Shown piece after piece: positions 14,114 through 15,065 of a stretch of 64,000 bases of DNA. Both the position numbers and the translations under genes were made by a program. The stretch is taken from NCBI GenBank assembly GCA_021811535.1, contig JAJZOF010000020.1, positions 10,572 through 74,571 of the forward strand, written 5' to 3'. The DNA comes from Candidatus Micrarchaeota archaeon (lineage in GTDB: Archaea > Micrarchaeota > Micrarchaeia > Micrarchaeales > CABMGC01). The number at the start of each line of letters is the position of its first letter. Within the stretch, counting starts at the first letter, position 1. The notes beneath the pieces are model-generated. The model was not told where the DNA came from. It saw nothing but the letters and a program-made list of their open reading frames with translations, and did not search any database.

Positions 14114-14121
14114 ATATATTA
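14114..14121 (+). promoter_or_regulatory. TATA-like box upstream of pilin-like gene 1 (leaderless geometry)
   Basis: The atatatta box lies 26 nt before the ATG at 14148. The surrounding tatattaatttg is conserved upstream of the paralog at 23509. Confidence 0.45.
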
Positions 14122-14397
14122 ATTTGTAGTAATATGTTTTTGGTAGTATGCAGGTAGAGATCCGCGCCCAGTCGGCAATGGAGTACTTGATGACTTATGG
14201 ATGGGCGATACTAATCATTGCAGTGGTTCTTGGCGCGCTCTTCGAGCTCGGCGTCTTCAGCGGAACTTTCTTCATGCCGCATGTGCCTCCGGGATCGTGC
14301 CATGTCTTTCGGCCTTACGGGCCTGGAACCGTAGGATCAATAAACCTTGAGGGAGAGTGCCAGGGCGCGCTGCCGCAGTATGTGGCTGAGTTCAATG
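14115..14397 (+). repeat. Conserved 5' module (promoter plus first ~83 codons) shared with 23475..23758
   Basis: The two DNA stretches align base-for-base by eye with scattered, mostly third-position differences and one 1-nt indel upstream of the ATG. Confidence 0.7.
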
Positions 14398-15065
14398 GAA
14401 ACGGCGACGTAAGTACGGATTATGTTCAGACGGAGATAACAAAGTACACCATAAGCGCTTGGGTAAAAACAACTTACACTGGTGGCGTCCCTATAGTCCA
14501 AGATAGAGGGAGTGGTGCTGGAAACAGCGTTACACTCGAACTAGGATATAACGGAGGCCAGTCCTCTCACCCTGGAACTGTCAATTGCGGAGTGGACTCT
14601 AATGGCGTATGGATAGGTGGTTACAGTACACAGGCAGTAAACGATGGTAACTGGCATTTCATTGCATGCGTATTTACTTCTGTCTCTGGTAACGCTGTCA
14701 AACCGTCCGATATAACAGTATATGTGGACGGCAAGCCTGCAGGACTTCTAGAAGCAGATATAGGAAGCAGTATTTCGCCAATCAATGGCTTGGGAGGCAC
14801 GATGATAGGGTATCATCAGGCATGGGGGCAGTATGCAACAGGAGACATGGCAGATATACAGATTTACAACACATCTCTTGATCAGAACAGCATAACTACG
14901 CTCTATGATGAAGGCATAGGGGGTGCCCCTGTTAACCTGCAGAATTTAGTCGGATGGTGGCCTCTGAATGGAAATACGAACGATTATTCAGGCAATAACA
15001 ACGATGGAACTGCGGCAAACGTTATATATACTACAAACTGGGAGAGCGGTTATACGCAGCCTTGA
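14148..15065 (+). CDS. Class III signal peptide (type IV pilin-like) protein with a LamG/ConA-like domain, paralog 1
   Basis: The N-terminus reads MQVEIRA|QSAMEYLMTYGWAILIIAVVLGALFELGVF. It has a basic residue, a small residue at -1, Gln at +1, Glu at +5 and a long hydrophobic helix. LamG-type landmarks are present (NDGNWHFIACVF...TVYVDGKPAG...DIQIYNTSL). Confidence 0.75.
   Translation: MQVEIRAQSAMEYLMTYGWAILIIAVVLGALFELGVFSGTFFMPHVPPGSCHVFRPYGPGTVGSINLEGECQGALPQYVAEFNGNGDVSTDYVQTEITKYTISAWVKTTYTGGVPIVQDRGSGAGNSVTLELGYNGGQSSHPGTVNCGVDSNGVWIGGYSTQAVNDGNWHFIACVFTSVSGNAVKPSDITVYVDGKPAGLLEADIGSSISPINGLGGTMIGYHQAWGQYATGDMADIQIYNTSLDQNSITTLYDEGIGGAPVNLQNLVGWWPLNGNTNDYSGNNNDGTAANVIYTTNWESGYTQP
14853..15065 (+). 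repeat. Conserved 3' module (last ~70 codons) shared with 24178..24390
   Basis: The two copies are alignable at DNA level by eye. The last ~60 nt (gcggcaaacgttatatatactacaaactggga.agcggttatacgca.ccttga) differ at 2 positions. Confidence 0.7.

Follow-up and report, generated by a model that had tools for sequence, protein, structure and literature searches.

A probable family of lectin-headed, pilin-like proteins in a micrarchaeon and its mosaic evolution

Introduction

How do two genes of one genome come to share nearly identical ends around centres that cannot be aligned? The question is posed by genes A and B in a 64,000-nucleotide (nt) stretch of DNA from a Candidatus Micrarchaeota archaeon (GenBank assembly GCA_021811535.1, contig JAJZOF010000020.1, positions 10,572 to 74,571 of the forward strand; C18:10572-74571 of genome G000 in our numbering), the whole of which is referred to below as the window. 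The assembly comprises 676 kb in 27 contigs and is ~78% complete; positions are those of the window unless another contig or locus is named. Micrarchaeota, like other DPANN archaea, live attached to archaeal hosts. It is argued here that A, B and a third gene, C, probably encode members of a modular family of type IV pilin-like proteins that evolves as a mosaic and presents strain-specific heads on one common stem. The evolutionary part of this argument is well supported; as to function, we infer that the LamG-bearing proteins would act as pilus adhesins.

Conserved ends and unrelated centres

Three open reading frames (ORFs) on the + strand are at issue, and all are present where a preliminary description of the window had placed them: gene A (14148-15065; 305 amino acids (aa)), gene B (coding sequence 23509-24390; 293 aa), whose start lies 9,361 nt from that of A, and gene C (52767-53657; 296 aa), a third and older LamG-bearing paralogue. 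The start assigned to B is sensible because the longer frame, from 23461, begins upstream of the promoter that B shares with A. In a computed DNA alignment the homology between A and B opens with TATATTAATTTG, 33-34 nt upstream of the ATG (14115 in A, 23475 in B), and closes with TGACGC, 6 nt into the stop region; outside these edges the flanks of the two genes are unrelated, upstream as well as downstream. From promoter to stop, the B cassette occupies 23440-24392 (+), with its TATA box at 23475.

Between these edges divergence is not uniform: sliding windows give identities of 0.77-0.96 for the ends and 0.33-0.48 for the centre. A and B are ~91% identical from the TATA box to mature codon ~77. 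In codon-aware windows over the first ~80 codons nucleotide identity is 0.81-0.96, with proportions of synonymous and non-synonymous difference (pS and pN) of 0.17-0.41 and 0.00-0.11, respectively. The central ~150 codons are at random level, 39% overall; identity then returns over the last 60 codons (0.77-0.88 in windows, 82% overall for the 3' end), and 57 of the last 60 nt are the same. A two-breakpoint maximum chi-square test with 200 permutations puts the breaks at 14400 and 14892 in A and at 23761 and 24217 in B, the difference rate being 0.60 between them and 0.11 outside. With a chi-square of 215, against a permutation maximum of 23, the clustering of differences far exceeds chance. 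The near-identical ends around an unalignable centre of ~150 codons, which the preliminary description had reported by eye, are thus borne out by alignment, windows and chi-square alike. Its first breakpoint, 14397, was accurate; its second exists but had been put at 14853, ~40 nt too early. Gene C is indeed a more diverged copy, its ends being 0.63-0.73 identical in nucleotides to those of A and B, but the three copies listed there are not the full set: the genome has at least five of LamG type and one contig-end fragment.

Gene A can be divided along these lines (all features on the + strand). A putative core promoter, so assigned from position and composition, forms the 5' edge of the A/B homology (14115-14147) and has a TATATTAA box ~33 nt before the ATG; because of that spacing the mRNA would be leaderless or nearly so. 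The leader peptide (MQVEIRA; 14148-14168) has a predicted prepilin-peptidase cleavage site before Gln8. The N module (14169-14399), homogenised with that of B, encodes the alpha-1 helix (residues 10-33) and, after it, a Cys51/Cys71 hairpin. Next comes the variable LamG (Laminin_G_3) core, here called an A-type centre (14400-14891; Pfam match at residues 84-249), and then the C module (14892-15065), with the last LamG strand and helix (IQIYNTS...LY) followed by a conserved tail, GIGGAP..LVGWWPLNGN.NDYSGN..W.SGYTQP.

Gene conversion and selection

The preliminary description left the choice between gene conversion and recent duplication. A congener, G001, whose syntenic DNA is 82-89% identical to that of G000, allows the choice to be made. 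Two of its genes were compared with A and B: C1a, which has an A-type centre, and C1b, which has a third type of centre. The centres of A and C1a are 0.75 identical in nucleotides, as against 0.39 for A and B, whereas N modules are most alike within a genome (0.91 for A and B, 0.94 for C1a and C1b, 0.84-0.86 between genomes). Informative sites of the quartet, counted as grouping by genome, A with C1a, and A with C1b, stand at 14:0:0 in the N module and 6:46:4 in the centre, and by-genome sites reappear only in the last ~40 codons, the part of the A 3' end that has been converted with B. Promoter and leader are likewise alike within each genome and different between G000 and G001. A control pair of positional orthologues (G000-C9/G001-C19) is uniform along its length, at 0.86, 0.82 and 0.86, and supplies a baseline pS of 0.5-0.67. 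The N-module pS of A and B (0.30) and of C1a and C1b (0.19) lie under that baseline, so the common ancestry of these modules is younger than the species split. Since N modules group by genome and centres by type, gene conversion is the part of the earlier proposal that stands and recent duplication the part that does not.

Other genomes show the same pattern. In a third congener, M3, protein P0001 is 92% identical in amino acids to A, and here it is the centre that is less diverged: synonymous divergence (dS) from A is 0.34 in the centre and 0.93 and 1.19 at the ends. (The contig region that holds P0001 is missing from G000; the contig was placed by way of G001, at 83% identity.) A stretch of 23 kb in G022, a complete single-contig genome from another family, holds 12 copies. 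In two pairs of these, N module and centre are 100% identical but the tails only 81% and 94%, and one of the diverged tails matches that of a neighbouring gene at 96%. The end modules have been homogenised by gene conversion, patchily and at both ends, and simple duplication followed by divergence is excluded.

A qualification is in order. The family extends across Micrarchaeota: homologues of gene A number more than 3,300, nearly all of them unnamed or annotated 'LamG domain-containing protein' and from metagenome-assembled genomes (MAGs) of Micrarchaeota type; 25 relatives have from 0 to 50 copies per ~0.8-Mb genome. Among 121 homologues, mean amino-acid identity is 0.76 for the N module, 0.23 for the centre and 0.71 for the C module, and invariant residues are confined to positions up to and including 76 and from 240 onwards, which makes conserved ends and a variable centre a deep, family-wide constraint on the protein. 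Most of the conserved-ends pattern is of that kind; the contribution of conversion on top of it is confined to subsets, among them A, B and the fragment at the end of contig C3. Selection alone does not bring identity of DNA with it, as the short proteins of ~157 aa discussed below demonstrate: they have nearly the same helix at the protein level, yet they are only 0.64-0.73 identical in nucleotides to A and B and group by orthology. A, B and the C3 fragment, at 0.91-0.96, have been homogenised in addition to being selected. Two G000 contigs, C3 (at its end, 8001-8166) and C13 (at its start, 1-150), break inside pilin N modules, and there are probably more copies than the assembly shows.

Within one type of centre, the ratio of non-synonymous to synonymous divergence (omega) comes to 0.17 and 0.10 (A type) and 0.03 (C9 type). 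Such centres are kept by purifying selection and represent old, distinct types; they are not diversifying fast. That the exposed domain differs from copy to copy, as proposed in the preliminary description, is correct; that it is diversifying at present is not. Positive selection on the heads, considered as a candidate explanation of their variety, is ruled out for same-type pairs by these values.

Signal, stem and candidate assembly machinery

The N-terminus of A has a basic leader, the sequence R-A|QSAMEY and a 24-residue hydrophobic stretch that is modelled as a helix (residues 10-33). Gln at +1, Glu at +5 and the hydrophobic helix are common to A, B and C; this much of the class III-type signal previously proposed holds. 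The residue preceding Gln, supposed to be basic, is Ala in A and B and Asn in C (...SRN|QSAMEY). Signals of the QSAMEY type occur in 14 proteins of the genome, among them the five LamG proteins and the contig-end fragment, a Kelch-repeat protein, a protein with InlB-like repeats and several proteins of ~157 aa in which no Pfam domain was found. The bacterial prepilin motif IPR012902 has no family match in Pfam or NCBIfam here, where the residue at +1 is Q and there is no G|F.

The short proteins provide the link to pilins. A model of a 158-aa paralogue (predicted local distance difference test, pLDDT, 87) has as its best match in the PDB the Sulfolobus solfataricus pilus subunit 6w8x (E 9.5e-4), and 8fk7 and 5tfy, both subunits of archaeal type IV filaments, are within its top 14; the template modelling (TM) scores are low, 0.28-0.39. 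A JGI record labels one homologue of these short proteins 'UPF0333 family'. The pilin assignment of A, B and C is based on the motif, on this fold of the short paralogue and on the presence in the genome of a candidate peptidase and ATPases. The short proteins would then be candidate shaft pilins, and the LamG, Kelch and other signal-bearing proteins modular pilins built on the same stem. The Kelch protein is encoded ~1.4 kb past the end of the window (G000:C18:76011-77405; 464 aa; Kelch_1 at E 7e-9); its helix is 0.80-0.82 identical in DNA to those of A and B, and it is a candidate beta-propeller-headed modular pilin.

A candidate prepilin (class III signal) peptidase, a polytopic membrane protein of the Peptidase_A24 family, is encoded on the - strand at 55179-56039, ~1.5 kb from gene C; in a six-frame search it scores 28.9 bits, above the cut-off. 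Two T2SSE ATPases are encoded elsewhere in the genome, outside the window, one of them in an operon of pilus type (G000:C17:13310-18709). The same operon has several small pilin-like ORFs and two membrane proteins (228 and 246 aa), neither of them matched by Pfam, that could together represent a platform protein split in two. These small ORFs bear a different signal (QMSLEF, QASLEF), and one of them is broken by masked bases.

The basic leader of A, B and C would be removed before Gln, probably by the Peptidase_A24 protein of 55179-56039, and the alpha-1 helix, the same as that of the ~157-aa short pilins, would anchor the subunit in a pilus or in the membrane. On this stem there would follow the two-Cys hairpin, a beta-sandwich of LamG/concanavalin A (ConA) type with its hypervariable core and a closing tail of ~50 residues.

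The LamG head

That A, B and C belong to the Laminin_G_3/concanavalin A-like lectin-glucanase superfamily is solid by profile and, in the case of A, by fold, as the preliminary description had it. Pfam Laminin_G_3 (PF13385) scores are 54.6 bits for A, 53.8 for B and 76.1 for C, the cut-off being 27.6. The AlphaFold2 model of A (pLDDT 86, predicted TM-score 0.82) runs from the helix 10-33 through two short strands that bear the invariant Cys51 and Cys71 and a two-sheet jelly-roll beta-sandwich to a second helix (246-255) and three strands in the tail. Its top Foldseek matches in the PDB are LamG, pentraxin and a Bacteroides carbohydrate-binding protein (E ~1e-9; TM ~0.6-0.7, normalised on the target). 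The head would bind glycans or surface proteins of partner cells. The LamG part alone also draws scores of 31 bits (B) and 20 bits (C) from the TafC family fimbrial protein profile (NF052521), which do not reach its cut-off of 410.

The conserved tail (LVGWWPLNGN.NDYSGN) was considered as a circularly permuted first LamG strand or as the start of a lost second LamG domain, and neither idea was supported; a profile of the tail found no match among PDB sequences. In a double-length homologue from genome G018 the tail precedes a Ser/Thr linker and an unrelated domain, and it is on this ground that the tail is taken to close the unit. That protein (L038:1150-3120, - strand; G018:C12) is 656 aa long and has, in addition to pilin-LamG unit and Ser/Thr-rich linker, a ~310-aa domain without family assignment.

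Gain, loss and insertion of gene units

Whole units also come and go. M3 has two tandem genes where contig C13 of G001 has one, and the G001 gene tracks M3 gene 1 through flank, promoter and leader and M3 gene 2 from early in the N module on. This switch indicates that one unit, consisting of N module, A-type centre, C module, spacer, promoter, leader and N module, has been gained or lost by recombination between N modules (N x N). The A-type centre is found at three different loci in the three congeners. Both cassettes on contig C1 of G001 (1.09 and 1.22 kb) sit where G000 is continuous, by insertion in G001 or deletion in G000.

For B the direction of change can be given. The genes for eIF2gamma and a DHH phosphoesterase are adjacent in five other genera, in three of which S6e, eIF2gamma and DHH are contiguous with spacers of 18-43 nt; in G000 the 953-nt B cassette lies between eIF2gamma and the convergent DHH gene. 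The B cassette is an insertion into the conserved S6e-eIF2gamma-DHH block. (The G001 assembly lacks the genes that flank A and B in the window, including the essential eIF2gamma gene.) No direct or inverted repeats, attachment (att)-like duplications or recombinase genes were found at cassette borders.

The history of the family thus has three strands. Promoter and N module, and the last ~40 codons, are overwritten time and again between copies of one genome, by homologous recombination or gene conversion. The same end homology supports unequal recombination that adds or removes whole gene units, as seen once, in the M3/G001 comparison. Full promoter-to-stop cassettes in addition arise at new intergenic sites, as B has done. 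A bolder version makes of the LamG-pilin genes self-contained, mobile promoter-to-stop cassettes, with the 5' and 3' modules as handles by which heads are excised, exchanged and re-inserted. The exchange would perhaps take place between strains, with community DNA taken up by the cells as its source, and heads would re-enter the genome either in a pilin gene already present, through N x N recombination, or in an intergenic site, in many cases next to the 3' end of a tRNA gene. We regard this version as quite unlikely; if true, it would amount to an archaeal, recombinase-free counterpart of pilin or adhesin switching, by which an obligate episymbiont adjusts its range of hosts.

Some features of the surroundings may be recorded here. 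Two LamG-pilin cassettes end 147-183 nt from a tRNA 3' end, tail to tail: A, whose stop lies 183 nt from the 3' end of tRNA-Pro (15248-15320, - strand), and C1b of G001, beside tRNA-His. C1b is also the G001 cassette that begins 4 nt after tRNA-His (L015:1467-1540). Neither an att-like repeat nor an integrase was seen beside these two cassettes, and the adjacency may be chance or a preferred context of insertion. In G022, four copies of a 1,974-bp tandem unit occupy L036:4632-12467 (G022:C1:583631-591466), each made up of a LamG pilin gene and two small genes (166 and 139 aa) that resemble a toxin-antitoxin pair; a TnpB-like fragment immediately precedes the array.

Alternative explanations

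Several observations weigh against a family of pilins evolving as set out above. The residue before Gln varies among the paralogues (A, S, N, L, I or M), which is unusual for sites of the PibD/FlaK type. Profile support for a pilin signal came from neither Pfam nor NCBIfam nor a PDB sequence profile: the full proteins and thirteen 60-residue N-termini gave no class III signal or pilin match in the first two at E<=1 to 10, and the N-terminal profile found no pilin among PDB sequences, only chance matches to a G-protein-coupled receptor (GPCR) helix. Read from its first Met, the peptidase ORF scores 26.1 bits against a cut-off of 26.5, which is at the Pfam threshold and not clearly above it. No platform protein of FlaJ/TadC type was recognised by Pfam in the ~78% complete genome, A, B and C are scattered single genes outside any pilus operon, and all genomes compared are MAGs. 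Class III signals are also carried by proteins that are not pilins, such as the sugar-binding proteins of the Sulfolobus bindosome. A, B and C might be surface-anchored binding proteins of that sort, capturing glycans or nutrients instead of building filaments, and the distance of their genes from pilus operons, their lectin-type heads and the gain that a metabolically reduced organism would draw from scavenging are all in keeping with this. The alpha-1 helix of the LamG proteins, however, hardly differs in amino-acid sequence from the helix of the genome's own short, pilin-fold proteins, which suggests co-assembly; up to 50 copies in a 0.8-Mb genome fit a variable set of adhesins better than a set of transport receptors; and ABC transporter genes are not consistently adjacent. 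A binding-protein role is unlikely on this evidence, and membership in a modular, pilin-like family remains the probable reading.

The mosaic itself has been open to other interpretations. That A and B are recent duplicates, their ends young and constrained and their centres driven apart quickly by positive selection without any conversion, would accord with the strong constraint on the ends across the family and with a centre pN of 0.58 between A and B, the poor alignment there being capable of inflating pS. It is nevertheless highly improbable in view of the by-genome grouping of N modules and by-type grouping of centres across the species split, the low omega of same-type centres, the centre of A being closer to that of P0001 than the ends are, and the differing tails of otherwise identical G022 genes. 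The pilin genes of Neisseria (pilE/pilS) also have conserved segments that flank variable cassettes exchanged by gene conversion, and the likeness raises the question of programmed, high-frequency switching of heads, with the ends serving as recombination handles. Conserved ends around variable cassettes, conversion tracts that end exactly at promoter and stop codon, the N x N junction and the location of cassettes at variable loci all lend themselves to that interpretation. Every copy examined, however, has its own TATA box, start codon, signal and intact ORF, so there are no silent, promoterless donors of the pilS kind. The converted tracts are not recent (pS 0.19-0.30) and look old, with no sign of high frequency or of an initiating element; the longest exact match between A and B is only 41 nt; and the surroundings of the genes showed neither a recombinase or invertase nor any special DNA element. 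Programmed switching is on these counts very unlikely. Finally, strain variants might have been joined across conserved ends in assembly, a concern to which the use of MAGs throughout and the two G000 contigs that break inside N modules give some substance. A and B, however, lie inside a 242-kb contig with unique flanks and share no longer exact run than that just mentioned, and the same pattern is seen in three congeners and in the single-contig genome of another family; an assembly artefact is hardly credible.

Relation to known systems

Modular type IV pilins of bacteria have been catalogued by Raynaud et al. 2021 (PMC8179133), where archaea are not mentioned, and the structure and glycan binding of one of them, PilC of Streptococcus sanguinis, have been described (PMC9934059). 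The likeness is close: in these proteins too a class III signal and pilin helix carry a lectin module of ConA/LamG type (PF13385), there as part of an adhesive filament. The differences make the micrarchaeal proteins analogues rather than members of that group. Their signal is the archaeal Q-S-A-M-E-Y, and the IPR012902 motif is absent; no globular pilin module is recognisable between helix and LamG domain, where a Cys hairpin of ~40 residues is all there is; behind the head they have a conserved C-terminal tail; and whereas PilC is one minor pilin, there are 5-6 paralogues in this genome and up to 50 in relatives. In contrast to PilC, what is said here of binding and assembly comes from sequence and models.

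LamG proteins of micrarchaea have attracted attention before. In the micrarchaeon Mia14, Golyshina et al. 2017 found the LamG-like proteins to be expanded, in part in association with type IV pilus loci and with a genomic island, and suggested that they take part in host interaction (PMC5498576), and Dombrowski et al. 2020 listed LamG proteins of arCOG07813 as possible DPANN adhesins (PMC7414124). These are very likely the same protein family as A, B and C. In the parts of these two accounts that bear on LamG proteins, the prepilin-type signal, the short-pilin stem, the mosaic, the conversion and the cassette insertions are not described, and our searches found no published description of a prepilin-type stem, mosaic evolution or cassette insertions in the archaeal LamG family. 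A 2026 survey finds type IV filament systems to be scarce in DPANN (PMC13705601). For the recombination, the nearest likeness is in the tandem lipoprotein paralogues (lpl) of Staphylococcus aureus, in which homologous recombination at a conserved internal block shuffles the variable parts (Tsuru and Kobayashi 2008, PMC2568036); the unit that moves there reaches from the 3' part of one ORF across the spacer into the 5' part of its neighbour. That unit resembles the M3/G001 junction and the G022 array, but in the archaeal genes the conserved blocks are at both ends and the centre is variable, and the copies are dispersed as well as tandem.

No new principle is involved: modular pilins that carry lectins are already known, and so is the concerted evolution of adhesin families. 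What the family offers is a clean archaeal example in which selection on the protein, gene conversion of the DNA and gain, loss and insertion of gene units can be told apart. It has also expanded more than any other surface-protein family of these very small genomes, to ~5% of coding capacity at most, in one relative. With a pilin stem, interchangeable lectin-type heads and a set that differs between congeners, the LamG-pilins are a concrete candidate for what determines the specificity of host attachment; related strains differ in these likely cell-attachment proteins through gain, loss and insertion of whole genes.

A last observation concerns the neighbourhood of gene C. Directly after it, on the opposite strand (53700-54368, -), lies a 222-aa ORF with one N-terminal membrane helix and a dozen N-x-S/T sequons, which probably encodes a glycosylated surface protein.

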